Below the pieces are notes generated by a model. It was not told where the DNA came from. It saw nothing but the letters and a program-made list of their open reading frames with translations, and searched no databases. 64,000 nt of DNA from the NCBI GenBank assembly GCA_044226285.1, contig JBGAHI010000009.1:965-64964 (forward strand), given 5' to 3'. Position numbers and translations under genes: made by a program. The stretch comes from Chitinophagales bacterium. Its GTDB lineage: Bacteria > Bacteroidota > Bacteroidia > Chitinophagales > LD1. Each line of letters opens with the position of its first letter. The stretch's first letter is position 1. Shown here one piece after another: positions 12,100 through 26,137 of the stretch.

Positions 12100-14256
12100 A
12101 TGAATTCTTTTTGGAAAGATTGGACACTGTTAACGCACAAAGGCCGACAGATATGGCGATTTACAAAACAGGATACGGTTACCAATGCGTATCTTCAAGA
12201 TGCAGTAAAGGCGTTTGATTTTAATAAACATATAAATCCCAATGCAGCCGATTTGGTTTATCGGAATGCAAAATTGGAAGGCCAAGATATTGGAGAACGA
12301 AATTCTGATTCCGTTGAAGATGCTTTACAACAAGCCATACATTTTTATTCGGCTATACAAACGGAAGATGGCCATTGGACAGGCGATTATGGCGGGCCAT
12401 TATTTTTGTTGCCAGGTTTAGTAGTGGCATCTGTTGTTACGAATACTTCACTACCCGCTGTTCATCAACGATTGATAGCACAGTATATTTTCAATCAGCA
12501 AAATAAAGATGGCGGTTGGGGCTTACACATCGAGGATAAATCAACTGTATTCGGAACAGTAATGAATTATGTTGCTTTGCGTTTTTTAGGTTTTGATCTT
12601 TCTGATGAGCGTATGCTATTGGCGCAAACCTGGATTCAGCAAACAGGTGGAGCTACAGGCATTCCATCGTGGGGGAAATTTTATTTGTCGTTGTTGAACG
12701 TGTATGCATGGGAAGGGAATAACACATTACTGCCTGAGTTGTGGCTACTTCCCAAGGGATTACCTATTCATCCATGGCGTTATTGGTGCCATACACGAAT
12801 GGTATATTTGCCTATGAGTTATTGCTATGCCCATCGCATTCAAATTGCCGAATCGGAATTGGTTCATGCTATTCGGAAAGAAATTTATACTACGCCATAT
12901 AATCAAATAAATTGGACAAAGGCTAAAGATGAAGTCAATGCTCTTGATGTCTATCACAAAGCATCGTCAATCCTAAATGTGTTTAATGCTTTCGCGAATT
13001 TCTATGAACGTTCTCCAATTCAACGATGGCGTAAAAAAGCGCTCGATTTTGTAAGTACATACATTGATGCAGAGGATGAGCAAACGAACTACATCAATAT
13101 TGGTCCGGTCAATCAAGTAGTTAATTCTATTGCTGTGTGGCATAAGTATGGCAAAGAGAGCGAACAATTTCAAAAACATGTTGAGCGCTGGTACGATTAT
13201 TTGTGGCTAGCTGAAGATGGCCTAAAAATGAATGGTTACAATGGATCACAGCTTTGGGATACCGCATTTGCAGTGCAAGCGTTTTGTGAATCAGATATGG
13301 CGAATTCATTTCAATCTTCAATAGAAAGGGCATATGATTTTATCGATTACTCCCAAATCAAAACTGAGGTTCGTGATTTCAATACTTACTTCCGACATGC
13401 ATCAGTAGGAGGGTGGCCATTCTCTACACGCGATCACAGTTGGCCAATCACTGATTGCACCGCAGAAGGCTTGTTGGCTTCAATGGCTGTCCACTCCACC
13501 TTCCCGGAGCTTCAACAAAAGGTGAGTTATGAACGTATGTGCCAGGCGGTTGATTTGATTCTATCTTTTCAGAATGAAGACAATGGTTGGGCTTCCTATG
13601 AATTATCACGCGGACCGAAATGGTTGGAAGTCCTTAATCCTGCAGCTGTTTTTGCTGATATAATGATTGATTATTCGTATGTGGAATGCAGTTCTTCATG
13701 TATTCAAGCCTTACATGTTTTTCATCAACACTATCCGCAATACAAAACGAACCAAGTGAAAAATGCTATTGAAACCGGATTGCGATTTTTATTATCGAAA
13801 CAGCGAGAAGACGGCTCTTGGATTGGCTCTTGGGCTGTTTGTTTCACTTACGGCACATGGTTTGCGTTGGAAAGTTTAACGAAACAGGGGTATACCTATG
13901 CTAATTCAAAATCGGTGAAAGCAGCATGCGATTTTCTTGTTGCAAAAGTAAAAGAAGATGGCGGATGGGGCGAATCCTTTGAATCTTGTGTTCGTAAAGA
14001 ATATATTCAGCATGGAACTTCACAATGTGTGAATACGGCATGGGCTCTATTATCTTTAATGGCTGCCGATTATCCGAATAAGCAACTCATCGATAAAGGA
14101 ATACAGTTGTTGATTCAACGTCAAGTTCGAAATGGAGATTGGCCACAGGAAGCTATCAGCGGTGTGTTTAATTTCAATTGCATGATTACGTATACATCAT
14201 ATAGAAATGTTTTCCCCATATGGGCTTTGGCACGTTACAAACGAAAATACAATTAG
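12100..14256 (+). CDS. osc: 2,3-oxidosqualene cyclase, cycloartenol-synthase type
   Basis: DCTAE catalytic motif (not the DDTA of SHC), GRQIW N-terminus, DYGGPLFLLPG, QW repeats (QNKDGGWG, QREDGSW, EDGGWGES), WCHTRMVYLPMSY, GYNGSQLWDTAF, GVFNFNCMITY. Confidence 0.96.
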   Translation: MNSFWKDWTLLTHKGRQIWRFTKQDTVTNAYLQDAVKAFDFNKHINPNAADLVYRNAKLEGQDIGERNSDSVEDALQQAIHFYSAIQTEDGHWTGDYGGPLFLLPGLVVASVVTNTSLPAVHQRLIAQYIFNQQNKDGGWGLHIEDKSTVFGTVMNYVALRFLGFDLSDERMLLAQTWIQQTGGATGIPSWGKFYLSLLNVYAWEGNNTLLPELWLLPKGLPIHPWRYWCHTRMVYLPMSYCYAHRIQIAESELVHAIRKEIYTTPYNQINWTKAKDEVNALDVYHKASSILNVFNAFANFYERSPIQRWRKKALDFVSTYIDAEDEQTNYINIGPVNQVVNSIAVWHKYGKESEQFQKHVERWYDYLWLAEDGLKMNGYNGSQLWDTAFAVQAFCESDMANSFQSSIERAYDFIDYSQIKTEVRDFNTYFRHASVGGWPFSTRDHSWPITDCTAEGLLASMAVHSTFPELQQKVSYERMCQAVDLILSFQNEDNGWASYELSRGPKWLEVLNPAAVFADIMIDYSYVECSSSCIQALHVFHQHYPQYKTNQVKNAIETGLRFLLSKQREDGSWIGSWAVCFTYGTWFALESLTKQGYTYANSKSVKAACDFLVAKVKEDGGWGESFESCVRKEYIQHGTSQCVNTAWALLSLMAADYPNKQLIDKGIQLLIQRQVRNGDWPQEAISGVFNFNCMITYTSYRNVFPIWALARYKRKYN

Positions 14257-15455
14257 TCTTCTTTCGTTTTGTTTTCTTTACGCCATTCGGTAGGCGTTAG
14301 TCCTGTTGCGTTTTTAAAGAACGTGTTGAAGGTTGATTTCGAGTTAAAGCCACATTCGTAAGCAATCGCAACAAGCGTTAAATGTTCGTATTGCGGATCA
14401 ATCATTCGCTTCTTTGTTTCTTCAATTCTAAATTCGTTTACGTACTCAAAAAAGTTTTTGCCTAAATGATTATTGAGTAATAATGTAATCTGATGTTTCG
14501 GAATATTTAAGTTCTGGGATAAATCCATGAGTGTCAATTCCGGATTCAGAAAGGGTTTCTGCTCGGCCATATACTGATTGATTTTCTCAATCTGTTTCTG
14601 TTTTTCAGGTGTTAAGTCGGGTTGTTTTTCTTGGTTTACTTCTGTAGGAAGATTTTGCTCAATCGGTTTTTCTGTAACAACAGCAGCGGGTTTGGTGAAT
14701 TGCTGATTTACAGTATCACTAATCATTCTGCGATAGGGTTCCTCGTCTTCATTGAATTCCGATTCGTGTTTGAACAGGTTGGGTTGCTTGATAGAAAAGT
14801 AACTCACCGAATAGGTGAGAATCATTAAACCTATGCTCGGTATCACTTCCAAATCCTTTGAATCGGATCCTGCAAAGGCTGAGTAGAAGCGCGTAATGAA
14901 ATAAATAATATAGGTTACAACATAAATTACGGATATATAATTCAACCAAAACAATCGATTTGATGTAGTGTCGTAAGAAAACATATTCATCTTAATCGAA
15001 TTCCGAAAGCTTTGCAACCAAAGGAATACAAGCACAGTGTAAATAATAGATGTAATTAAGAAAAAAGTAGAAATAGAAATGCTTAATGCAAAAGCTTGAA
15101 TGGAAAATTGATCTTTAAAAACGATAAAGTAAATCGACACTAATACTAGAAACGGTGCAAAATGTAACAACTCGTATGGCGAGAAACGTTTAGACGGGTC
15201 GCTTAAATATTTAGTATATAGGAACAAAAATGGTCCAAACGTCAAAGGAATTAAGCCAATGGAGAACTCTGCATCGAAAAATTGTCCGTGTACTTGTTCC
15301 GTTGCAATTAAGAAGAAACGTAACGCAATCGTCAACAACCACAAGATGAGAATGCGGTCGTACGTTTTCTTTTTTCCTTTAGTATAAAAAAGAAAAGCAG
15401 AGAACAGCGCTTGCGACAGTCCAATGTAGCTGAATATGGTAATGTTATTAATCAC
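14253..15455 (-). CDS. Membrane-anchored AraC-family transcriptional regulator
   Basis: About 6-7 hydrophobic N-terminal segments; C-terminal AraC HTH FLNPELTL...NFFEYVNEFRI...IAYECGFNSKSTFNTFFK. Confidence 0.92.
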   Translation of the reverse strand: MINNITIFSYIGLSQALFSAFLFYTKGKKKTYDRILILWLLTIALRFFLIATEQVHGQFFDAEFSIGLIPLTFGPFLFLYTKYLSDPSKRFSPYELLHFAPFLVLVSIYFIVFKDQFSIQAFALSISISTFFLITSIIYTVLVFLWLQSFRNSIKMNMFSYDTTSNRLFWLNYISVIYVVTYIIYFITRFYSAFAGSDSKDLEVIPSIGLMILTYSVSYFSIKQPNLFKHESEFNEDEEPYRRMISDTVNQQFTKPAAVVTEKPIEQNLPTEVNQEKQPDLTPEKQKQIEKINQYMAEQKPFLNPELTLMDLSQNLNIPKHQITLLLNNHLGKNFFEYVNEFRIEETKKRMIDPQYEHLTLVAIAYECGFNSKSTFNTFFKNATGLTPTEWRKENKTKED

Positions 15456-15884
15456 CTATTTATATCTTGTCCATTTTCGTGTTTTGCCTAAAAAGCGGAA
15501 CCACCACCAATAGCCTTTGATGTAGAGTACATCGTTTTCGATATACATTATGGCATTATAATCGCTACCTCCATCAAAATAATAGTAATTTCCATCGTTC
15601 CATGAAGTGCCGTTACGCTTACCTTTTAAGCCGGTTAATACATCTATGCCTATTATCTTTCTACTGCGTAGTTTTGGATTTTCGTTGTAGATATCTCTTC
15701 TGATTTCTCCATTTTCATCTAAAGAATCTTTCACCCAAACCAGTTTCCCAAAAATCAGATTGTTCTTCTCGTAAAATTGGATGCGCATATCTTGGGTTTC
15801 GTTTGTCCATAATCCTTCTGTAATTGACGTTTGTGCAAAACAGTCAATAGATAAGAACAATAAAACAATCCAAAAGTATTTCAT
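15456..15884 (-). CDS. DUF2147 domain secreted protein
   Basis: Signal peptide; ITEGLW...GKLVW...DIYNENPKLRSRKIIG...LYIKGY...GKTRKWTR. Confidence 0.8.
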   Translation of the reverse strand: MKYFWIVLLFLSIDCFAQTSITEGLWTNETQDMRIQFYEKNNLIFGKLVWVKDSLDENGEIRRDIYNENPKLRSRKIIGIDVLTGLKGKRNGTSWNDGNYYYFDGGSDYNAIMYIENDVLYIKGYWWWFRFLGKTRKWTRYK

Positions 15885-15894
15885 GTTTGTTAAA

Positions 15895-16860
15895 TTACTT
15901 TTCTCTATTGCGAAGCAAATGGGCTAGTTCAAACAATGGTTTTTTGTTTTCTTCCTTAGCGGTGATGGCCGTTAAATTCTTGATGGCTTTTTTATAATAG
16001 GCATCAATCAAATCTTCCGTGTATTGCTTTGCCCCAGTTTGATCCATCAATACCAACATCTCTTTTACTTTCTTACGTTTGTCTTTTTCTGTAAGCAATG
16101 CAGCAATTTTTTTGCGTTGCGTTGGATTGGCTAATTCAATGGCTTTCAACAAAAGAATGGTTTTCTTATTGAGTATAATATCACCACCTGCCCGCTTTCC
16201 CACTTTCTTTGGATCTCCATATGCATCTAAAAAGTCATCGTGAATTTGAAACGATAAGCCTAAGTTCAATCCAAATTCATAAATATTCTTTTGCGATTTC
16301 TTATCGGCATCTGCAATCCATGCTCCCATTTGCAACGCACCGGCCAATAACACAGACGTTTTGCCTTTAATCATTTCCAAGTATTCCGTTTCTGAAACAT
16401 TATCTCTGGTTTCGAATTCCATATCTTTCGATTGGCCTTCAATTACTTTCACTACCGTATCATTGAAAATTGCATACAACTCTTGAATGTTGTCTTTCTT
16501 GATTTTACCCAAATAGCCGTACGATTGAGTAAACATCATATCTCCGGTGTTGATGGCTACATTGTTACCGTAAATCTTATGCACGGTTGGATTCCCTCTT
16601 CGTGTAGTGGCCTTATCCATAATGTCGTCATGCACCAAAGTAGAATTGTGATATACTTCAACCGCCAACGCAGCCGGTAATGCAGTTTTCAAATTGCCAT
16701 TAAACAAATCGCAACCCATTAAGGTGAGTGCCGGACGAATACGCTTACTGCTCATCGCCATAATGTATTGCATGGCACGATAAACATCATAACGTTCATC
16801 AAACGATTGTTCTGCATAATATTTTTCAAACATAGCGACTAACTCGGTGTACGATTTCAT
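15895..16860 (-). CDS. Polyprenyl diphosphate synthase (FPP/GGPP synthase family)
   Basis: KRIRP, FARM HDDIMD..TRRG, GQSKD, GKTS, SARM FQIHDDFLD, GKRAGGDI. Confidence 0.93.
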   Translation of the reverse strand: MKSYTELVAMFEKYYAEQSFDERYDVYRAMQYIMAMSSKRIRPALTLMGCDLFNGNLKTALPAALAVEVYHNSTLVHDDIMDKATTRRGNPTVHKIYGNNVAINTGDMMFTQSYGYLGKIKKDNIQELYAIFNDTVVKVIEGQSKDMEFETRDNVSETEYLEMIKGKTSVLLAGALQMGAWIADADKKSQKNIYEFGLNLGLSFQIHDDFLDAYGDPKKVGKRAGGDIILNKKTILLLKAIELANPTQRKKIAALLTEKDKRKKVKEMLVLMDQTGAKQYTEDLIDAYYKKAIKNLTAITAKEENKKPLFELAHLLRNREK

Positions 16861-16944
16861 GCTTTTTTATTGAGGATGATTAATTCGCCTCAATTTTAGC
16901 AAAATATTGACTTGTATTTATGTTTCCCACGCTTTTCCTTTGCA

Positions 16945-17862
16945 TCAAAATAGTTTTGGCAAAAATCGTGGTGTCTTTTTGATATAATCTTTGTAGCCTT
17001 CATACTTCTCGCTCGAAATACTCTCACTAAAATCGGCACTGCCCTGAAAGAGCAGCATAAGCAATAACGCTCCGGTTACCGACCAATTCAAATATCTCCC
17101 CGTTGCCACAATGGTGAACAAGAAAAAGGTAACCCAAATACTCTGCTCCGAGGCGTAGTTCGGGTGACGAACGTGTTTCCACAAGCCCGAGTGCACAAAG
17201 CCTTTTCCGTAATACTCTCCCAATGGTTCACCGACATTCATTCTGCGGTGTTTCTCGTTTTGATAATTCCATTGTTGTTGATCGGCAATGGTTTCAATCG
17301 CTACGAAGCCTAGGTAAACGATAGCCAAAATATAATCACCAATCGTTAACTGCTGGCTATCGGCCTGAAATGCCATCACAGCAGGCAATGTGAACAGCCA
17401 AATTAATGTGTTTTGATAGAGCGAAATAAACCCCAGATTAAAGATGGTCCATGTAAAACGATTTTGCAGGAATGGCTTTTTGCGTAGAACATCCCAACGA
17501 TAGTCTTCATGGCCTTCCCAGAATTTTAACTTGTAAGCACCTCTTCTGCCAAAGTTATAGGTAAGTCGAACGCCCCAAATAGTGGCTAATACAGCCATCA
17601 ACACTAATCGCGGACTCCAATCACTTTCGTAAGCAAAGAGCCATGTATAGAGGATAGGCGTGATGCTCCACAATTTATCGACCTGACTGCAATTGTTCGT
17701 TAATTCGCTTACAACAAAGCATGTTAATGCAACACCTAACATTAATAACCCCGAATGTTGTAGCATTTGAATTTGTAATGCAGAAAGCGGCTGATCGAAT
17801 TGTATGGCTACAAAGGGAACTACAATAATCGTAACGATGAGAATGAAAATAGTTTTTAGCAT
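16945..17862 (-). CDS. DUF1295 steroid-reductase-like membrane protein
   Basis: SQVDKLWS, WGVRLTYNF, EDYRW, ETIADQQQW, GLWKHVRHPNY.SEQ. Confidence 0.88.
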   Translation of the reverse strand: MLKTIFILIVTIIVVPFVAIQFDQPLSALQIQMLQHSGLLMLGVALTCFVVSELTNNCSQVDKLWSITPILYTWLFAYESDWSPRLVLMAVLATIWGVRLTYNFGRRGAYKLKFWEGHEDYRWDVLRKKPFLQNRFTWTIFNLGFISLYQNTLIWLFTLPAVMAFQADSQQLTIGDYILAIVYLGFVAIETIADQQQWNYQNEKHRRMNVGEPLGEYYGKGFVHSGLWKHVRHPNYASEQSIWVTFFLFTIVATGRYLNWSVTGALLLMLLFQGSADFSESISSEKYEGYKDYIKKTPRFLPKLF

Positions 17863-17871
17863 ATCTAAATT

Positions 17872-19272
17872 TTAAAGTGCAATCTGTTTTTTTCTAAATA
17901 TTTTATTGCCCAAACGTAACCACATTTTTGTTGTGTTGTTTTGTACTTCATTGTTTAAAAGTGGATAAATAATGGCATAAGCATCGCCTACCATGTAATA
18001 CGCATCAACCATTGAAGCTATTCCTGGATTTTTATTTACTTTCTTCATTCCACCTTTCGCTGCTACAGCAAAAAAGTGTTTGGCTAAAGTGGTTTTGCTT
18101 TTATCGATTCCTGAAAGTAAGGCAATAGGCTCTTCTGCTTGCTTTCCTCCCGCTGCTAAATAATTAAAACAGGCTTCTTTCAAATCATGATTGCTCATTA
18201 CTTTGTAAAGCGCATCTGCTAAAATATTTACTGCAGTATTTTGTGTTCGCGAAGCATAGAATGCACGAATCAATTCCATTCGGTTTTCAGTAGTTTCTAT
18301 TGACATCGTTTTCAATAACTGTTGTATGCTGTTCACATCGCGAAGGGTAACCGTCATGCCTCCACCGGTGAGCGGATGACGCATATTCAGCGCATCACCA
18401 AGCACTACCACACCATCCTGCATAATCGGTTTGCCCGGCAAATAATGGTTTGGCATTACCTTGAATTTTCCTTCTAGCATGCATACATCAAAAGCTTTGT
18501 GCATACTTTCCGGAATACGACTGCGCACATGTTGGTGGAGGTATTGTACCAACTCCTCGCTTTTTCGCGGTGGTTGATGGCCCGGGAAGTCAATTAAAAA
18601 TCGGATTTCATTTTTCGTTATGGGGTAACATAAAAACGGTGAGGACTCAGTCAAAAATACATGTCCGTGTTCAGCAACTGGCAGCGGACAATCTTTCAAA
18701 ACAATACCTAAGAAGTAACCGGTAACGGTTGCTGCTACTTCAGTGGTTTGTTTTCGAAATGTAGAAAAGAAGCCATCCATTACGATGGTTAGTTTTGCAT
18801 TTATTGCGATCGATTGTCCTGCTTTATCTCTGCAATAAATACCTGCAATTCGATTTCCTTTTTCGTGGATGAACGTTTGCGCTTCCGCTTCAATTCGCTT
18901 GATGTTATTGCCTTTTGTTAATTCATCACGCATTTTCTGCACAAATTTTCCATTCGTTAATCCCAAGCCGAATTTCCCTTCCGGATAAGCAATGTGTAAT
19001 GGCGTATCGTCTTTCATAATGGTGTAGCCTGTTATGCGTTGGGCATCATACCCATCCAGCAAATGCTCTAATTGCATCGCTTTCAGTTGTTCAACGCCAT
19101 CGGGTTGCATCAGTTCGCCAACAATGCGATCTTGTTCGCGCCAGTCTTTCTCAACAATAATTACTTTTAGCTTTTGATTCGCTAAGCTACACGCCAAGGC
19201 AGCTCCTGCAACCCCGGCACCTATGATACAAATATCAGCATCATGGTGAATAAGATTTGTTTCGTTCATCAT
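17872..19272 (-). CDS. Squalene monooxygenase (epoxidase), SQLE/ERG1-like
   Basis: FAD motif IIGAGVAG, DRIVGELMQPDG, DGFFSTFRK, GDALNMRHPLTGGGMTV, NILADALY. Confidence 0.95.
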   Translation of the reverse strand: MMNETNLIHHDADICIIGAGVAGAALACSLANQKLKVIIVEKDWREQDRIVGELMQPDGVEQLKAMQLEHLLDGYDAQRITGYTIMKDDTPLHIAYPEGKFGLGLTNGKFVQKMRDELTKGNNIKRIEAEAQTFIHEKGNRIAGIYCRDKAGQSIAINAKLTIVMDGFFSTFRKQTTEVAATVTGYFLGIVLKDCPLPVAEHGHVFLTESSPFLCYPITKNEIRFLIDFPGHQPPRKSEELVQYLHQHVRSRIPESMHKAFDVCMLEGKFKVMPNHYLPGKPIMQDGVVVLGDALNMRHPLTGGGMTVTLRDVNSIQQLLKTMSIETTENRMELIRAFYASRTQNTAVNILADALYKVMSNHDLKEACFNYLAAGGKQAEEPIALLSGIDKSKTTLAKHFFAVAAKGGMKKVNKNPGIASMVDAYYMVGDAYAIIYPLLNNEVQNNTTKMWLRLGNKIFRKKQIAL

Positions 19273-20438
19273 TAAAAAATTATTGGATTCGTTAATCTTT
19301 GTCCGAGTGCCAGTTTAATTTGGCAGATGCTTCCCCACATTGTAGCCGGAGTGTTTTTACTGTCTTGCATTTTTTCTTCCAACTCTTCGATGAAGTGAAG
19401 CATCATCTGTTTTGTACTTTCGAAATCACGCGTTTCCATCATGATTTTAGCCGATAGACCTTTTCTGATTTTTACATTTTTGCGAAACACTTCCGGGTTA
19501 TCATACAATTCAACAAGTGTGGCAATGGCCATCAATTGCGGAATAGCGCAGAAACGGAAAATTTGCATGTTCTGCAATTGACTCAAATAGTTGATGCAAT
19601 CGGGTAAATGGCGAATCGCATCCTCAATCATACAGTTCAAGCCTTTTAGTGAAGTGCTGCTTTCGGGCATGGATTTGAAAAGCGACAACGCTGTATGATG
19701 TTTATCCCAAATTTCGTTGGGCCAGAAAATGCGGTTCACTTCGAAATCTTCTAAGAAATCACGTGTGATATTCGTTTTCTGCAAAAACAAACCCATAGAA
19801 TTAGCGATGGTCATTTCTGAAGCCAATCCTTCTGCTTCAAAACCTGATGCGGAAAACAATTGACTTAAACCTTGTCCCACCAAACCGGCTACATAATGAC
19901 AATAAATATCGTAGTCCTGAATGGTTGTAATTTTGTAAGAACCCGAATCGGCCATGCCATTCCCCATGCGGAAACAGATATCGGAAATCACTTCCTTATA
20001 TTCCGGTTTCAGTTGAATGAACGAGCGCGTTACTTTATCGAAATGTTGCAACAACAAACGATAATCTTCTGTGTCGCCAATGCCTGTTAATGTGAAATCA
20101 GATAAGTAGCACGATTTGTAAAAATTACGCAGTAAACGTTCTTTTTCCGTTTCATCTAGCTCCATATCGTCTTCCACCGTATCGAGTCCGCGAAGCACCA
20201 AATAGAAAATGCCTACCGCTTCCTTTAATTCTTGCGGTAATTGTTGAATCACAATGGCGAACGAACGCGATACCTTTGTGAGGGCATCAAAACAGAACGC
20301 CATATCAGATCTAGTTAGCGCAGCTTCTGCTAAATTGATTTCACCCTGTTTGGGTTTTTCGCTGATGGAAAATTTAAGTAATGCCTTCAACTCCGAAGGA
20401 TGCGAAGCCGATTTTATTAAGTTTTTTAGTGTGCTCAT
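19272..20438 (-). CDS. Squalene synthase, FDFT1/ERG9-like
   Basis: VSRSFAIVI, FYLVLRGLDTVEDDM, YCHYVAGLVG, MGLFLQKTNITRDFLED, FRFCAIPQLMAIATL, VKIRKG. Confidence 0.95.
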   Translation of the reverse strand: MSTLKNLIKSASHPSELKALLKFSISEKPKQGEINLAEAALTRSDMAFCFDALTKVSRSFAIVIQQLPQELKEAVGIFYLVLRGLDTVEDDMELDETEKERLLRNFYKSCYLSDFTLTGIGDTEDYRLLLQHFDKVTRSFIQLKPEYKEVISDICFRMGNGMADSGSYKITTIQDYDIYCHYVAGLVGQGLSQLFSASGFEAEGLASEMTIANSMGLFLQKTNITRDFLEDFEVNRIFWPNEIWDKHHTALSLFKSMPESSTSLKGLNCMIEDAIRHLPDCINYLSQLQNMQIFRFCAIPQLMAIATLVELYDNPEVFRKNVKIRKGLSAKIMMETRDFESTKQMMLHFIEELEEKMQDSKNTPATMWGSICQIKLALGQRLTNPIIF

Positions 20439-20457
20439 ACGTTGTGTTTTAGTGATG

Positions 20458-20465
20458 CAAACCTA
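20458..20465 (-). promoter_or_regulatory. -7 element of squalene synthase operon
   Basis: TAGGTTTG on the minus strand, 19 nt before the ATG at 20438; no clear TTG -33 element. Confidence 0.55.
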
Positions 20466-20792
20466 GGTTAGGGGTAGCCCTTTGGCGTATGTATCGAGCA
20501 GCAGACGTATGCTTATCCCACTTTTGTTTAAACGAACACTCAAAAAACTGAATATCAGTTTATTGTGAATTTATTTTTAGCGGTCGAATGGAGCGATTTT
20601 GCGTATTCGAACGAAATGGAACCAACAAATGAATATTTATAAAGCGTTGATAATCATTTGTGTGTAAATTTGACCAACTAAGCCTTTAACGAGGTCGTTT
20701 TGGGGCGTGTATTTGGTTTATCCGAACTTAAAACGGTTCAAAAAATCGAAACCTTAAGCTTTATGCGTAAATTCGCCTCGGAAAATAAATAC

Positions 20793-21806
20793 ATGAATTT
20801 AGACCCAACAGCCGAGCAGCGGAAAAAAGATCACATCGATTTAGCGTTTCAATCGCAGATTCAAACTAGCGAATTAGACCATCGCTTTTTCTACGAGCCG
20901 ATGTTATCTGCACATCCTTCCAATGCCCTTCCACCTTTTTCTTTTTTAGGAAAAACGATGAAGGCGCCTATTTGGATTTCGTCTATGACGGGGGGAACCG
21001 GACCGGCACGACACATTAACCAAAACCTCGGACGCGTTTGTGGTGAATTTGGTTTAGGTATGGGCTTAGGTTCAACGCGTGCATTATTGGATAGCGATCA
21101 GTTTTTTGCCGATTTCGATTTACGTCAGTTAATTGGCAACGATCATCCCTTCTTTATTAATTTAGGTATTGCACAAATCGAAAAATTATTGTCTTCCGGC
21201 ACATTTGAAAAAGCAATTGCGCTTACCGATAAGTTACAAGCCGATGGTATGTTCATTCACGTGAACCCGATGCAGGAATGGTTGCAACCTGAGGGGGATC
21301 ATATCAGTCGTCCGCCACTCGAAACCATTGCTGAAGTATTGAGTTTGTATGCTAAACCTGTGATTGTAAAAGAAGTCGGTCAGGGTTTCGGACCGGAAAG
21401 TATAAAAGCATTATTGCAAATGCCTTTGGCGGCTATCGATTTTGCTGCTGCGGGAGGAACCAATTTTGCGAAAATTGAATTGTTGCGTTCAGATATGCAG
21501 AAGCAACAGATTTTTGATGCGTTTGCGAAAGTGGGGCACTCTGCAGCAGAAATGGTGGATTTTACGAATGCCGCTATTGCTGAGTTAGGCGATAAGGTGA
21601 AAGTGAAAGAAGTAATAATTTCCGGTGGAGTGAAAAACTACCTCGATGGTTATTATCTGATAAGCAAATCGAAGCTTCCTGCTGTTTATGGTCAGGGAAG
21701 TGCGTTGTTGCAATATGCAGGAGAATCGTACGAAAGTTTAAAAGCTTACGTTGAAAGTCAAATAAAAGGATTAACTTTTGCCAATGCTTTTTTGCGAATA
21801 AAGTGA
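20793..21806 (+). CDS. fni: Type 2 isopentenyl-diphosphate delta-isomerase
   Basis: RKKDHI, ISSMTGG, HVNPMQEWLQPEGD, VKEVGQG, GGTNFAKIE; start taken at MNLDPT 20793. Confidence 0.93.
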   Translation: MNLDPTAEQRKKDHIDLAFQSQIQTSELDHRFFYEPMLSAHPSNALPPFSFLGKTMKAPIWISSMTGGTGPARHINQNLGRVCGEFGLGMGLGSTRALLDSDQFFADFDLRQLIGNDHPFFINLGIAQIEKLLSSGTFEKAIALTDKLQADGMFIHVNPMQEWLQPEGDHISRPPLETIAEVLSLYAKPVIVKEVGQGFGPESIKALLQMPLAAIDFAAAGGTNFAKIELLRSDMQKQQIFDAFAKVGHSAAEMVDFTNAAIAELGDKVKVKEVIISGGVKNYLDGYYLISKSKLPAVYGQGSALLQYAGESYESLKAYVESQIKGLTFANAFLRIK

Positions 21807-21853
21807 TCAGTTAGCTTCTAGAGGCTAGGGGCTTAATTAATTGTTTTAATTCA

Positions 21854-21861
21854 TAATTTTG
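21854..21861 (+). promoter_or_regulatory. Internal -7 element upstream of HMG-CoA reductase
   Basis: TAATTTTG matches TAnnTTTG, 31 nt before ATG 21893. Confidence 0.5.
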
Positions 21862-21892
21862 CAACAACTCGAACGAATTTAGTTTAAGGAAT

Positions 21893-23221
21893 ATGAGTAA
21901 AGAAATACAAGGTTTTTCGAAGATGTCCAAAAAGGAGAAGATCCAGTGGATGGCGAAGAATTTCCTTTATGCGAATCCAATTGATGTGATGAAAGAGTTT
22001 GCCGGTTTTTGGCACGATAACATCGAAGCACAAAAGCTTTTAGATGGATTCAGCGAAAACACATTAACGAACTTTCCGGTGCCTTTCGGTATCGCACCGA
22101 ACTTCATGATCAATGGCGAGATTTACGCTGTGCCAATGGTGATTGAAGAAAGCTCGGTAGTAGCTGCTGCTTCGAATGCCGCTAAGTTCTGGTTAAGTCG
22201 GGGTGGCTTCAAAGCGAAAGTGATTTCGTCTACAAAGGTTGGACAAGTGCATTTTCAATTTGATGGCGATAAAGAAAAATTGTTTTTCCTTTTCAATACA
22301 GAAATAAAAGCTAAGCTTCTTCAAGCGGTGAAGCCCATTACGGCTAACATGGAGAAAAGAGGAGGAGGTGTGAAAGACTTGGAATTGATTGATTTCACAT
22401 CTATAGAACCCGATTACTATCAGATTCGTTGCTATTTTGAAACAGTAGATTCTATGGGCGCGAATTTTATTAATTCATGCTTGGAGGAATTCGGAAAGTC
22501 TTTGGTAGATATTATTTCGAACGATGCACGCTTCAATTTGGAAGAGCAAAGCATAGAAGTAATTATGTGTATTCTTTCGAATTACACACCGGAATGTGTG
22601 GTGAAAGCAGAAGTAGAATGCAATGTAGATGAACTCGGTTCTTTCGATGATGGCAAGATGAAAGCCCGCGAATTTGCTGCTCGTTTTGCAAAGGCTGTTC
22701 GCATTGCACAAATCGATCCGTATCGCGCCACAACACATAATAAAGGAATTATGAATGGCATTGATGCCGTAGTGTTGGCTACAGGTAACGATTTCAGGGC
22801 GATTGAAGCTTGTGCGCATACTTATGCAGCGCGCGATGGACAGTATAGAAGTTTATCGGAATGCACCATTGAAAACAATATTTTCAATTTCAGTTTAACC
22901 ATTCCATTAGCGGTTGGAACAGTAGGTGGATTAACTTCTTTGCATCCATTGGCAAAGCGTTCATTGGAAGTATTGGGCAATCCATCTGCACATCGCTTGA
23001 TGGAAATTATTGCAACGGTTGGCTTAGCGCAAAACTTTGCTGCTGTGAAATCGTTGACTACTGTTGGTATTCAGAAAGGGCACATGAAAATGCACCTCAC
23101 CAATATTTTGGCATCGTTCCAAGCAACAGATGCAGAAATGGAAAAGGCGCGTGAATATTTTGAAGATAAAACCGTTTCCGTTTCCGGTGTTCGTGAATAC
23201 CTGTTAGACATCCGAAAATGA
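21893..23221 (+). CDS. mvaA: Class II HMG-CoA reductase
   Basis: SENTL, PMVIEESSVVAAAS, DSMGANFINS, RATTHNKGIMNG, GNDFRAIEA, GIQKGHMKMH. Confidence 0.96.
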   Translation: MSKEIQGFSKMSKKEKIQWMAKNFLYANPIDVMKEFAGFWHDNIEAQKLLDGFSENTLTNFPVPFGIAPNFMINGEIYAVPMVIEESSVVAAASNAAKFWLSRGGFKAKVISSTKVGQVHFQFDGDKEKLFFLFNTEIKAKLLQAVKPITANMEKRGGGVKDLELIDFTSIEPDYYQIRCYFETVDSMGANFINSCLEEFGKSLVDIISNDARFNLEEQSIEVIMCILSNYTPECVVKAEVECNVDELGSFDDGKMKAREFAARFAKAVRIAQIDPYRATTHNKGIMNGIDAVVLATGNDFRAIEACAHTYAARDGQYRSLSECTIENNIFNFSLTIPLAVGTVGGLTSLHPLAKRSLEVLGNPSAHRLMEIIATVGLAQNFAAVKSLTTVGIQKGHMKMHLTNILASFQATDAEMEKAREYFEDKTVSVSGVREYLLDIRK

Positions 23222-24144
23222 GTGCTGCCACTTTTTATGCCTCGGGCAAATTACTGCTCTCCTCTGAATACTTTATCTTAGATGGTGCGCAAGGACTTGC
23301 CATTCCTACTGTATACGGACAACGAATGGATGTAACGAACTTGCCTACACATACCAATACTTTGTATTGGAAAGCATTTACATCCACTCAAACACTATGG
23401 TTGGATTTGGTGTTTGATAAACAAACATTGCAAGCAACTACCGATTGCAAAGAAGCCAATATGCTCTCGTTAATGCTCCAAAAAATACGCGAACAACAAC
23501 CCGATTTCTTGCTGAGTGACAGCGATGTAGAAGTTGCTACATACCTTGAATTTCCTAATGCCTGGGGCCTAGGTTCCAGCTCTACTTTATTGGCTTGTTT
23601 AGCGCAATGGCTTAATATCGATTGGTATACATTGTTGAAAGCAACTATTGGCGGTTCAGGATATGATGTAGCTTGTGGATTAGCCAAAACACCTGTTTTG
23701 TATAGCATTGAAGCCGGTCGGCCGGTTGTGAAATCTGTTGTTTTCCAACCTAAATTTTCGGAACAACTCTATTTTGCTTATTTGGGAAAGAAGCAATTGT
23801 CGTCACAAGGCATTCAGCATTATAAAGACAAAGCACAAGATAAAGCCGCAATTGCACTTCAATTGACAGCTATCACCACAGCAATGCTCAACTGCTCTAC
23901 CTTGAATGCTTTTGAAACATTGTTAGAAGAGCACGAACTCATTATTAGCAATGCGTTGGGAATGGAACGTGTGCAGCAAAGTGTGTTCCCTGATTATTGG
24001 GGAAAAGTGAAATCGTTAGGTGCATGGGGTGGCGATTTTGTTTTATTAACGAATAACAGAACAGAAAAAGAACTACGCGATTATTTACAGCAAAAAAATA
24101 TTGATGTTGTTTTTAGCTTTAGCGAATTAATATTGAAATCATAA
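23218..24144 (+). CDS. GYDIA-family GHMP kinase, probable phosphomevalonate kinase
   Basis: GKLLLSSEY, WGLGSSS, GSGYDVAC, KSLGAWGGD; ATGA overlap with mvaA. Confidence 0.8.
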   Translation: MSAATFYASGKLLLSSEYFILDGAQGLAIPTVYGQRMDVTNLPTHTNTLYWKAFTSTQTLWLDLVFDKQTLQATTDCKEANMLSLMLQKIREQQPDFLLSDSDVEVATYLEFPNAWGLGSSSTLLACLAQWLNIDWYTLLKATIGGSGYDVACGLAKTPVLYSIEAGRPVVKSVVFQPKFSEQLYFAYLGKKQLSSQGIQHYKDKAQDKAAIALQLTAITTAMLNCSTLNAFETLLEEHELIISNALGMERVQQSVFPDYWGKVKSLGAWGGDFVLLTNNRTEKELRDYLQQKNIDVVFSFSELILKS

Positions 24145-24146
24145 GT

Positions 24147-25196
24147 ATGAATACGATAAAAAAAGTAACCTGGCAGAGTCCTTCAAACATTGCGCTCATC
24201 AAGTATTGGGGCAAGCACGGCAATCAGTTGCCGAACAACCCTTCCATTAGTTTCACATTGGAGGAGTGTTATTCTGAAACTACTTTGGCCATTGAGCCTA
24301 AGACAGGTTCAAGCAATGAAATCGAATTGCGTTTTTATTTCGATAAGAAAGAGAACCTTGCGTTTCGTTTGAAGATCTTGCAATTCTTCGAATCTATCCA
24401 CAAAGAGTTTTCGTTTTTGCGTGATTACTCGATTGTGATTCACTCGATGAATTCGTTTCCGCATTCATCAGGTATTGCATCTTCGGCATCATCCATGAGC
24501 GCTTTGGCTTTGTGTTTGTGTTCTATGGACGATATGTTGAACAAACGCAAAACGCCTAAAGACGACTTCTTCGCTCGTGCTTCTCACTTTGCACGTTTAG
24601 GTTCAGGCAGTGCTTGTCGTTCGGTATATCCGGTGATGGCCTCGTGGGGTAAGAACAAACACATTAAAAATTCATCCGATAAATTTGCTACTGATTGTAG
24701 CGATTGGATCCATCCGATTTTCAAAACATTTCAGAATTCGATTTTGATTGCTTCGGCATCCGAGAAAAAAGTATCGAGTCGCGTGGGGCATTCGTTGATG
24801 GAAACCAATCCGTTTGCTACCGCACGTTACAAGCAAGCCAACGATAATTTGAATACACTGATCAAAGCCTTAATGACAGGCGATTTGGACACCTTCGGGG
24901 AAATTGTAGAAACAGAAGCACTAACACTTCATGCTTTAATGATGTGTTCTACGCCTTCATTTACATTGATGACACCGAACACATTGGCGATGATTGAAGC
25001 CATTCGCGATTTCCGTGAAAGCTCTCAGATTCCGGTGTACTTTACTTTAGATGCCGGTCCGAATATTCACTTGTTGTATCCAAATAAATTCAAAAGCAAA
25101 GTGCACGAGTTTATTGAACTCGAATTGAAACAATTCTGCGAAAACGGTCGCGTTATTTTTGATGCCGTAGGCAAGGGTCCGAAATTGATTAAGTAA
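24147..25196 (+). CDS. mvaD: Diphosphomevalonate decarboxylase
   Basis: SPSNIALIKYWGK, NPSISFTL, GIASSASS, ARLGSGSACRS, FTLDAGPNIH. Confidence 0.95.
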   Translation: MNTIKKVTWQSPSNIALIKYWGKHGNQLPNNPSISFTLEECYSETTLAIEPKTGSSNEIELRFYFDKKENLAFRLKILQFFESIHKEFSFLRDYSIVIHSMNSFPHSSGIASSASSMSALALCLCSMDDMLNKRKTPKDDFFARASHFARLGSGSACRSVYPVMASWGKNKHIKNSSDKFATDCSDWIHPIFKTFQNSILIASASEKKVSSRVGHSLMETNPFATARYKQANDNLNTLIKALMTGDLDTFGEIVETEALTLHALMMCSTPSFTLMTPNTLAMIEAIRDFRESSQIPVYFTLDAGPNIHLLYPNKFKSKVHEFIELELKQFCENGRVIFDAVGKGPKLIK

Positions 25197-25219
25197 CAAC
25201 AACGAACAATTCAGAGTCT

Positions 25220-26137
25220 ATGCAACGTAAGGCAATAGCATTTCAAACATTTCCATCCAAAGTACTTTTGTTTGGTGAGCATATCATCAATAAAGGCGCA
25301 CAAGGCTTGGCTATTCCTTCTCGTTTGTATAGTGGAAAACTCACGTATTCGAAAAACGATTCGGAGGAAGACAAAAACTCCAATCATTCGTTAGCGCAAT
25401 TAGCCAATTACATTATTGCAAATCCTGAATTAGAAAAACATATTGCCATCAACGATTTTCTTACCGCCATTGAACGCGGTTTAGTTTTCGATTCTAATAT
25501 CCCACAAGGTTATGGCATGGGCAGTTCAGGGGCGCTGGTCGCTGCTGTGCTTTCTGCATACGGACATGCTGCAATATTGGATAGTGATATTCAATCCATT
25601 AAAAACTTTTTAGCTGCCATGGAAAGTTGCTTTCATGGACGAAGTTCAGGGCTTGATCCTATTGTAGCTTATTTACAGAAACCTTTGCTGGTGTCTATGA
25701 AGGAAACACAAGTGGCATTGTTCAAAAAAAGTCCGGCTCCGGTGTTTGATGTAAGTTTGTTTGATACCGGTGTGCCGCGTAAAACAGCCGATTGGGTACG
25801 TTTATTTATGGAGCGAACACAGCAACATGCATTTGGTGAAATCGTTGAAAAATCGATGCTTCCGGCCAATCAAATTTGTATTGATGCGATGTTGAATTTG
25901 AAATATGTTCCGTTCTGGAAATCGCTGAAATTGATTTCGCAATTGCAGTTCGATTATATGCAAGACTTTATACCAAAAGCATTTCACGGTGTATGGAAAA
26001 ACGGCTTGCTCAATAATGAATATTACCTCAAAATCTGTGGTGCCGGTGGAGGTGGCTTTATTCTATGTTTTTCAAAAGCGAATACCGACTTATCCAACTT
26101 CCGCTTTGCAGAAAGACATGAAGTGATGAAATTCTAG
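25220..26137 (+). CDS. mvk: Mevalonate kinase
   Basis: SKVLLFGEH, IPQGYGMGSSGA, FHGRSSGLDP, KICGAGGGG. Confidence 0.9.
   Translation: MQRKAIAFQTFPSKVLLFGEHIINKGAQGLAIPSRLYSGKLTYSKNDSEEDKNSNHSLAQLANYIIANPELEKHIAINDFLTAIERGLVFDSNIPQGYGMGSSGALVAAVLSAYGHAAILDSDIQSIKNFLAAMESCFHGRSSGLDPIVAYLQKPLLVSMKETQVALFKKSPAPVFDVSLFDTGVPRKTADWVRLFMERTQQHAFGEIVEKSMLPANQICIDAMLNLKYVPFWKSLKLISQLQFDYMQDFIPKAFHGVWKNGLLNNEYYLKICGAGGGGFILCFSKANTDLSNFRFAERHEVMKF

Follow-up and report, generated by a model that had tools for sequence, protein, structure and literature searches.

We have analysed a gene of the DUF1295 family that lies inside a sterol operon of a Chitinophagales bacterium, and find that this lineage-specific linkage to sterol synthesis does not define the function of the family. 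The gene occurs in a stretch of 64,000 nucleotides (assembly GCA_044226285.1, contig JBGAHI010000009.1, positions 965–64,964 of the forward strand), which we call the window. The order of the operon is squalene synthase (SQS), squalene epoxidase (SQLE), DUF1295 and a polyprenyl diphosphate synthase (PPS), all on the same strand, with a gene for oxidosqualene cyclase (OSC) close by (Table 1). The initial annotation placed the DUF1295 gene 9 nt downstream of the SQLE stop codon on the same strand, where it is indeed found, and proposed that its product may tailor the sterol made here or act on an isoprenoid intermediate and that the operon context could assign a function to the family. The reading that we favour, at somewhat better than even confidence, is that the protein is a conserved, usually stand-alone membrane enzyme of Bacteroidota, probably a C=C reductase dependent on NAD(P)H whose lipid substrate is not peculiar to sterol producers, and that one lineage moved its gene into the operon. 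The gene itself is real and expressed, and it belongs to a known family without an assigned function.

The linkage to sterol genes proved to be narrow. A scan with one genome per species yielded 575 relatives, of which the best 80 (52–94% identity) were kept. SQS, SQLE or OSC was present in a single one of these 80 ortholog loci, and that locus came from a near-identical genome; for 71 of the loci 1.5 kb or more of upstream sequence is available, and 35 comprise 20 kb or more. The ortholog was also followed through 201 genomes of the order, with the genome of the window as G000. Among the 20 genomes with both genes, the ortholog adjoins SQLE in three only (G000, G102 and G124), which are species-level genomes of one genus; in the other 17 the two genes are on different contigs. 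A congener, G078, which is 100% complete, has the gene order SQS–SQLE–PPS–DUF2147–AraC–OSC with ∼115 nt between SQLE and PPS and no DUF1295 gene, and a full-length DUF1295 was found nowhere in that genome (the best match, of 41 bits, covers part of the profile). At six further SQS–SQLE loci of the order the flanking genes are unrelated housekeeping ones, and a 79%-identical ortholog from the same taxonomic family lies among unrelated genes.

A conserved functional neighbourhood of the ortholog was sought across the ortholog loci and none was found; the commonest neighbour family occurs at 19 of 79 loci, all of them in one clade. The neighbours in one Crocinitomicaceae-type clade include NlpC/P60, MerR, Vut_1, dehydroquinate synthase, MFS transporters, thioesterase, MscS and MsrAB, and those in eight further carriers include gyrB, SDR, rhamnosidase, PrsW, a RES-Xre pair, sulfotransferase, 3-hydroxyacyl-CoA dehydrogenase, TauD, diacylglycerol kinase and an NmrA-like protein. 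The ortholog is thus usually a stand-alone gene among unrelated genes, and the place of DUF1295 in the sterol operon is a recent, single-lineage arrangement that counts as one event. As the gene is linked to SQLE in a single genus, this context does not allow the family to be annotated, and the expectation that the operon would assign its function did not hold.

Co-occurrence of the ortholog with sterol synthesis was assessed in the same 201 genomes. As a control, OSC and SQLE were found in an identical set of 33 genomes, and the remaining 168 gave no other triterpenoid cyclase match at E ≤1e-30. Sterol synthesis is common in the family of the window (15 of 17 genomes). The ortholog is present in 31 genomes, 20 with sterol genes and 11 without; 13 genomes have sterol genes only and 157 have neither. 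The 11 genomes with the ortholog only are 88–100% complete, three of them (G003, G081 and G179) being at 100%. The ortholog occurs without sterol genes in families f21, f24 (one genus) and f4, the converse holds for families f26 and f9, and in genera g1, g4, g8 and g45 the presence of the ortholog does not track sterol genes. Of the 80 genomes from which the closest orthologs came, 14 have SQLE (11/40 plus 3/40; completeness was not given for this set), leaving 66 without it. A sample of 401 genomes of the phylum has the ortholog in nine and SQLE in G000 alone; the eight other carriers, from seven families and all listed as 100% complete, have no SQLE.

In the ortholog tree the SQLE label requires nine changes, compared with a mean of 14 in shuffled labels, and none of 500 shuffles was as low; the label is therefore clustered on the tree, as relatedness predicts and far from a single origin. 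The window belongs to a group of 10 rows with 84% support, eight of which are SQLE-positive, and this group is essentially the window's own family. Two tree rows, L070 and L083, are mis-called open reading frames (ORFs) with long branches and a third, L054, is absent from the tree; 81 orthologs were then aligned with these three extracted anew. In this alignment 77 of 305 columns are at least 97% conserved, and at no position are the 15 SQLE-positive rows told apart from the 66 SQLE-negative ones. Identity to the window protein is 54–62% in SQLE-positive rows, close kin aside, and 51–63% in SQLE-negative rows. Bacteria unable to make sterols retain this same protein, and the constraint on it is no different there.

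The protein matches PF06966 (DUF1295) in Pfam with an E-value of 6.7e-41 (140.7 bits, cut-off 20.4), residues 49–297 aligning with profile positions 2–235 of 235; close relatives carry the name DUF1295 in their source annotations, and >3,000 homologs exist. Its likeness to the family, which some JGI annotations name ‘steroid 5-alpha reductase family enzyme’, consists in this full-length profile match and in common invariant residues: D62, W65, D120, R122, D194, E239 and E280 do not vary across 68 aligned sequences, among them the canonical DUF1295 paralog of the same genome. In size and topology, too, it conforms to the family, whose members are polytopic helical membrane proteins of ∼250–310 residues with conserved Asp/Trp, Glu-Asp-x-Arg, Asp-x-Gln and RHPNY..E positions. 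Compared with canonical DUF1295 proteins, the clade of the window is longer (∼305 versus 259 residues), has an extra N-terminal helix and is not paired with DUF2177; identity to the canonical paralog is ∼20%, and the Pfam scores of the two proteins are 141 and 218 bits. Against the clade profile, the orthologs of the order sample reach 420 bits or more and the next intact match no more than 112 bits; the protein belongs to a sharply bounded, tightly conserved DUF1295 group of Bacteroidota.

Neither PF01222 (ERG4/ERG24) nor PF02544 (steroid 5-alpha-reductase) was matched at E ≤10 in the Pfam search. PF04140 (ICMT), the only second Pfam family at this level, reached 15.2 bits over 17 residues against a cut-off of 24, and the sole NCBIfam match, NF040696 (isoprenylcysteine O-methyltransferase; residues 221–304, E 5.7e-06), reached 26.3 bits against a cut-off of 160. 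Judged by sequence, the protein falls outside PF01222, PF02544 and PF04140. The clade profile found nothing relevant among PDB sequences (best 2p11_A at E 0.38), and a search of the ESM Atlas returned DUF1295 clusters alone. A broad family profile picked up MaSR1 (4quv_A, E 0.0069, C-terminal half) and Ma-ICMT (4a2n, E 0.018). Comparison by hhalign of the clade alignment with the paralogs of its own genome gave probabilities of 10% for the SRD5A-like, 26% for the ERG4/ERG24 and 37% for the ICMT-like protein, and these low-probability results were used solely for local residue correspondences. In agreement with the initial annotation, the literature searched assigns no function or substrate to DUF1295 (also under COG3752, PF06966 and IPR010721); the search extended to portions of the texts, and supplements, possibly with gene-neighbourhood tables, lay outside it. 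None of the bacterial sterol papers listed was among the literature matches to DUF1295, and an Arabidopsis member is termed uncharacterized in an excerpt of PMC11301207.

An AlphaFold model of the protein, for which the alignment of orthologs served as input (pLDDT 85.3, pTM 0.86), is an all-helical polytopic bundle with 7–8 long helices, and the C-terminal motif GLW..VRHPNY.SE, which the initial annotation had picked out together with the polytopic character, is located at residues 226–240. Foldseek gave no match at E ≤0.001; its best hit was 4quv_B (1.6e-2, probability 1.00). VIA-align, run on candidates proposed by Foldseek, gave Z-scores of 13.4 for 4quv_B (MaSR1), 11.8 for 7c83 (PbSRD5A), 11.2 for 8xku_G and 10.6 for 7bw1 (SRD5A2), and, among methyltransferases, of 10.3 for 4a2n (Ma-ICMT), 9.8 for the ICMT 5v7p and 9.5 for 5vg9. 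With seven superfamily chains at Z 9.5–13.4 and the next, unrelated chain at 4.9, membership in the fold superfamily of steroid reductases, ERG4/ERG24 and ICMT is sound. This superfamily had been named from the motif, and both structures suggested for comparison at that time, SRD5A2 and MaSR1, were matched. The third-best match, 8xku chain G (198 residues aligned), is a subunit of the Arabidopsis Ycf2-FtsHi motor complex.

Each branch of the superfamily shares something with the protein and differs from it. The superposition on 4quv_B covers 252 residues (root-mean-square deviation 5.3, 17% identity). MaSR1 and the ERG4/ERG24 proteins (PF01222) have in common with it the RH.NY motif and the C-terminal tail; it is ∼130 residues shorter than MaSR1, whose helix-7 Arg-x-x-Arg-Asp-Asp aligns with Ser and Glu, and its clade is found beyond genomes with sterol synthesis. 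Steroid 5-alpha-reductases (PF02544) match it in fold and align with it at four NADPH-binding residues, and lack its extra N-terminal helix. ICMT (PF04140) shares the C-terminal core, the RHP.Y motif and the C-terminal tail; only the last ∼174–210 residues align, and conserved Asn and Glu residues of the clade are missing from ICMT-type sequences.

The residues of helices 5–7 that contact NADPH in PbSRD5A are N159, D163, R170, N192, Y193, E196, T219, N222, R226 and H230 (excerpts of PMC7815742). In local alignments made through the SRD5A-like protein of the same genome and human SRD5A2, D194, N235, Y236 and E239 of our protein align with D163, N192, Y193 and E196 of that list. None of the four varies within the clade, and for D194 and E239 this holds across the broad 68-sequence alignment as well. 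N159 aligns with E190 or T191, the four helix-7 residues have no mapping at the sequence level, and the alignments stop short of the N-terminal half and of the Q-E-Y catalytic motif on helices 2–3. In the alignments printed, Ma-ICMT and the genome's own ICMT-like protein are without the Asn and Glu of the PNY..E motif. The canonical DUF1295 paralog passes the Pfam cut-off for Steroid_dh (PF02544; 35.7 versus 22.6 bits), and the solved structure closest to it in sequence is that of human SRD5A2 (E 0.015).

SRD5A enzymes reduce enones (excerpts of PMC7815742), and the entry of the substrate of steroid 5-alpha-reductase from the bilayer has been described (excerpts of PMC7591894); by analogy, the same route might be expected for the DUF1295 protein. 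UsgR, a fungal membrane ene-reductase of ustilaginoidin biosynthesis, reduces an enone C=C bond in vivo, neither activity in vitro nor its cofactor having been obtained; it belongs to the same superfamily and is likened to DUF1295 by its authors, and it differs in being part of a fungal polyketide cluster with a naphtho-gamma-pyrone as substrate (excerpts of PMC8597850). Because of the matches to NADPH-binding residues, the paralog that passes Steroid_dh, the activity of UsgR and the Asn and Glu missing in ICMT types, we favour NAD(P)H-dependent C=C reduction as the most likely chemistry of the clade, at about even confidence. NAD(P)H, the probable cofactor, would bind at the cytoplasmic face of the C-terminal helices, and hydride would pass to a C=C bond of a hydrophobic substrate entering from the bilayer. 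Such a substrate would be a membrane lipid or an isoprenoid common to sterol producers and non-producers, and probably not the dedicated product of the neighbouring SQS, SQLE and OSC genes. In one lineage the gene would have moved between the SQLE and PPS genes, to be co-expressed there.

The genome (3.6 Mb, 100% complete) encodes further members of the superfamily. The canonical DUF1295 paralog (259 residues, 218 bits) is on contig 7 (region 118772–122452), where it overlaps a DUF2177 gene by 13 nt, the two being flanked by an acyltransferase–methyltransferase fusion and an alpha/beta hydrolase; DUF1295 and DUF2177 have been named together near heliorhodopsin genes (bioRxiv 2021.02.16.431466). 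Contig 6 encodes a true SRD5A-like protein (PF02544, 163 bits), contig 3 an ICMT/PEMT-like protein and contig 5 a true ERG4/ERG24 sterol reductase of 439 residues (PF01222, 227 bits; E 8e-54 to MaSR1 4quv) at 358895–360046 (L092:8893–10212, minus strand). The gene for this last protein is well away from the sterol operon and has an NAD-dependent epimerase/dehydratase-type gene and a PadR regulator as neighbours. For reducing sterols this ERG4/ERG24 homolog is a stronger candidate than the DUF1295 protein. The initial annotation saw no other plausible tailoring enzyme in the operon, and there the DUF1295 protein is indeed the sole candidate; in the genome as a whole the ERG4/ERG24 and SRD5A-like proteins are candidates too. 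The only P450 of the genome was considered as CYP51 and rejected, as its best solved relatives are 7wzl and P450 BM3 and CYP51 is absent among the 60 matches shown.

ERG4/ERG24 homologs occur in 32 of the 201 genomes of the order: in 21 of the 33 sterol-positive ones and in 11 of the 168 in which OSC and SQLE are both absent. They fall into two size classes, of ∼440 and ∼365–390 residues. Their presence in bacteria that do not make sterols suggests action on external sterols or on non-sterol substrates. In G154 (85% complete, 4% contamination) in-frame stops are found both in the DUF1295 ortholog (six; C14:55974–56879) and in the ERG4/ERG24 homolog (four; C12:13422–14612), and the two genes may have decayed together.

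Contigs assembled from RNA libraries bridge both junctions of the DUF1295 gene: the one with SQLE in X15 record 3 (17603–18138) and X19 record 21 (17790–17941), from one study, and the spacer before PPS in X15 record 1 (16793–17049) and X16 record 9 (16793–16995), from two studies. A terminator scan found no terminator-like site on the minus strand in either spacer. The scan for sigma-70 promoters was uninformative (12 promoter-like sites versus 20.1 expected), Bacteroidota promoters not being covered by it. The RNA-library contigs leave parts of the operon uncovered, to which we attach no meaning. The DUF1295 gene is very probably co-transcribed with the genes for squalene and oxidosqualene synthesis.

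We consider it unlikely that the enzyme was recruited here to tailor a sterol or triterpenoid, by reducing a C=C bond in squalene, in oxidosqualene or in the product of OSC, such as C24=C25 of the latter. Several observations favour this possibility and, together with a few on the chemistry, weigh against the reading that we prefer. Spacing as tight as 9 nt within a biosynthetic operon usually has a functional meaning, the RNA-library contigs span both junctions, and the arrangement is kept in G000, G102 and G124. The solved fold nearest to the model, 4quv, is that of a sterol reductase, a delta14-sterol reductase. In the order sample the ortholog is found more often in sterol-positive genomes (20/33 or 61%) than in sterol-negative ones (11/168 or 6.5%), an enrichment carried by three families (f1, f2 and f13); it shares 20 of its 31 genomes with ERG4/ERG24 homologs; and the supported tree group is mostly SQLE-positive. 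Uptake of sterols from the environment is compatible with missing OSC and SQLE, which leaves room for action on sterols in such genomes, and the organism lives in activated sludge. With regard to chemistry, R170 of PbSRD5A aligns with a Gln (Q201), the helix-7 Arg residues of MaSR1 and SRD5A have no counterpart, S275 faces an Arg in MaSR1 and Ma-ICMT, the broad profile matches MaSR1 and Ma-ICMT about equally, and the cofactor is one that we infer. The RNA-library contigs, too, fall short of proof of a single transcript, and such libraries can contain DNA.

What tells against tailoring is that the three linked genomes amount to one genus and one event, that G078 has the operon without the gene, and that 13 of the 33 sterol-positive genomes have no ortholog. 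SQLE is missing in carriers at every level (66/80 of the closest, 8/8 in the phylum sample and 11/31 in the order), no residue column is specific to sterol producers, four genera show no tracking, the supported tree group is essentially the window's own family, and the ERG4/ERG24 protein encoded elsewhere is the better candidate. Sterol tailoring, as first proposed, is thus mostly not borne out. The comparative evidence goes most of the way to what the initial annotation had named as telling against it, a clade equally common in sterol-negative relatives. There is similarly a small chance that the clade as a whole is a new bacterial C=C reductase of sterols or triterpenoids, both self-made and scavenged from eukaryotes; this would explain the presence of the clade and of ERG4/ERG24 homologs in genomes without OSC or SQLE.

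Two other chemistries or roles have to be weighed against a general lipid reductase. It is quite unlikely, in our estimate, that the protein is an S-adenosylmethionine-dependent methyltransferase of ICMT/PEMT type, acting on a lipid or on an isoprenoid carboxylate or head group. The family matches name this activity, in NCBIfam as the sole hit and in Pfam as the only second one, and score far under their cut-offs; the folds of Ma-ICMT and ICMT are matched at Z 10.3 and 9.8 and the broad profile finds 4a2n, but reductases align over more residues (252 and 211 versus 174 for Ma-ICMT) and at higher Z. In Ma-ICMT the motif is followed by an acidic run, to which the invariant E280 aligns, and the Asn and Glu of PNY..E, invariant here, are missing in ICMT-type sequences, with the canonical paralog passing the Steroid_dh cut-off. 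Still less probable, and a special case of the reading that we prefer, is a stress-related reductase that repairs lipids by reducing enones arising from oxidative or photo-oxidative damage. A list of singlet-oxygen-induced genes of Chlamydomonas has DUF1295 together with DUF2177, DUF1365 and methionine sulfoxide reductase (excerpts of PMC4067076), the canonical DUF1295 gene of our genome overlaps a DUF2177 gene, and enones are what SRD5A enzymes and UsgR reduce according to the excerpts cited above; these hints from the literature concern canonical DUF1295, however, and not the clade of the window. One ortholog clade does have a MerR regulator (16 of 79 loci) and MsrA/MsrB (seven of 79) as neighbours, but they come from one group of related loci and count as one event, and the context in the window is without any pointer to stress.

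The features of the locus are listed in Table 1. The start codon of the DUF1295 gene was accepted because the N-terminus aligns from residue 1 with orthologs, 25 of which support it. The profile matches of the mevalonate cluster are TIGR02151 (193.7 bits, cut-off 281.3), PF00368 (3.7e-90), NF040656 (342 bits), PF22700/PF18376 and TIGR00549 (85.3 bits, below cut-off). Its first gene (20700–21806, plus strand), to which the TIGR02151 match (type-2 IPP isomerase) belongs, has no Pfam match at E ≤0.001, and its product looks like a divergent isomerase or a related FMN enzyme.

Table 1. Features of the sterol locus in the window, with the matches or observations on which each assignment rests
Feature	Coordinates	Strand	Basis
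Oxidosqualene cyclase (OSC), 718 residues, convergent on operon	12100–14256	+	TIGR01787 679.6 bits (cut-off 322.7); TIGR03463 689.6 bits (below cut-off 851)
Membrane-anchored AraC-type regulator, 400 residues	14253–15455	−	HTH_18 6.6e-17, residues 313–393
DUF2147 protein, 142 residues	15456–15884	−	PF09917 4.2e-21
Short-chain polyprenyl diphosphate synthase (PPS; FPP/GGPP-synthase type), 321 residues	15895–16860	−	PF00348 3.1e-74; NCBIfam matches all under cut-offs
Spacer between DUF1295 and polyprenyl synthase genes, 84 nt	16861–16944	−	No minus-strand terminator-like site
DUF1295-family polytopic membrane protein, 305 residues	16945–17862	−	ATG-started ORF; PF06966
Spacer between SQLE stop and DUF1295 start, 9 nt	17863–17871	−	No terminator-like site
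Squalene epoxidase (SQLE), 466 residues, stop codon included in coordinates	17872–19272	−	PF08491 E 4.9e-77
Squalene synthase (SQS), 388 residues, first gene of unit	19272–20438	−	TIGR01559 414 bits (cut-off 286.75); PF00494 8.1e-43
Divergent mevalonate-pathway genes	20700–26137	+	Type-2 IPP isomerase-like, HMG-CoA reductase, GYDIA GHMP kinase, diphosphomevalonate decarboxylase, mevalonate kinase-like

The genes for the DUF2147 protein and the membrane-anchored AraC regulator (14253–15884, minus strand) adjoin sterol genes also in G078 (L085 10566–12182) and in G015 (L090 5663–7397), in two genera, so that the linkage of this pair to sterol genes is at least as wide as that of DUF1295. The pair could represent a sterol-related binding protein and its regulator. 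The stretch 15800–20500 is held at 65–100% of sampled words by 14 runs from activated sludge, bioreactors or wastewater, and partly by six RNA libraries. Communities of wastewater treatment thus include the organism recurrently.

The position of the gene in the operon is a weak clue to the role of the DUF1295 protein. DUF1295 is a large family, present in bacteria and eukaryotes and built on a reductase/methyltransferase fold, and a conserved link to sterol synthesis would have supplied it with a substrate. If the clade were a sterol or triterpenoid reductase after all, the capture by the SQS–SQLE operon would be a clue to the first substrate of the family, and the congener with the same operon minus the DUF1295 gene offers a natural control. 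The ERG4/ERG24-type reductases of the order, found with and without de novo sterol synthesis, bear on the use of sterol-modifying genes as biomarkers.

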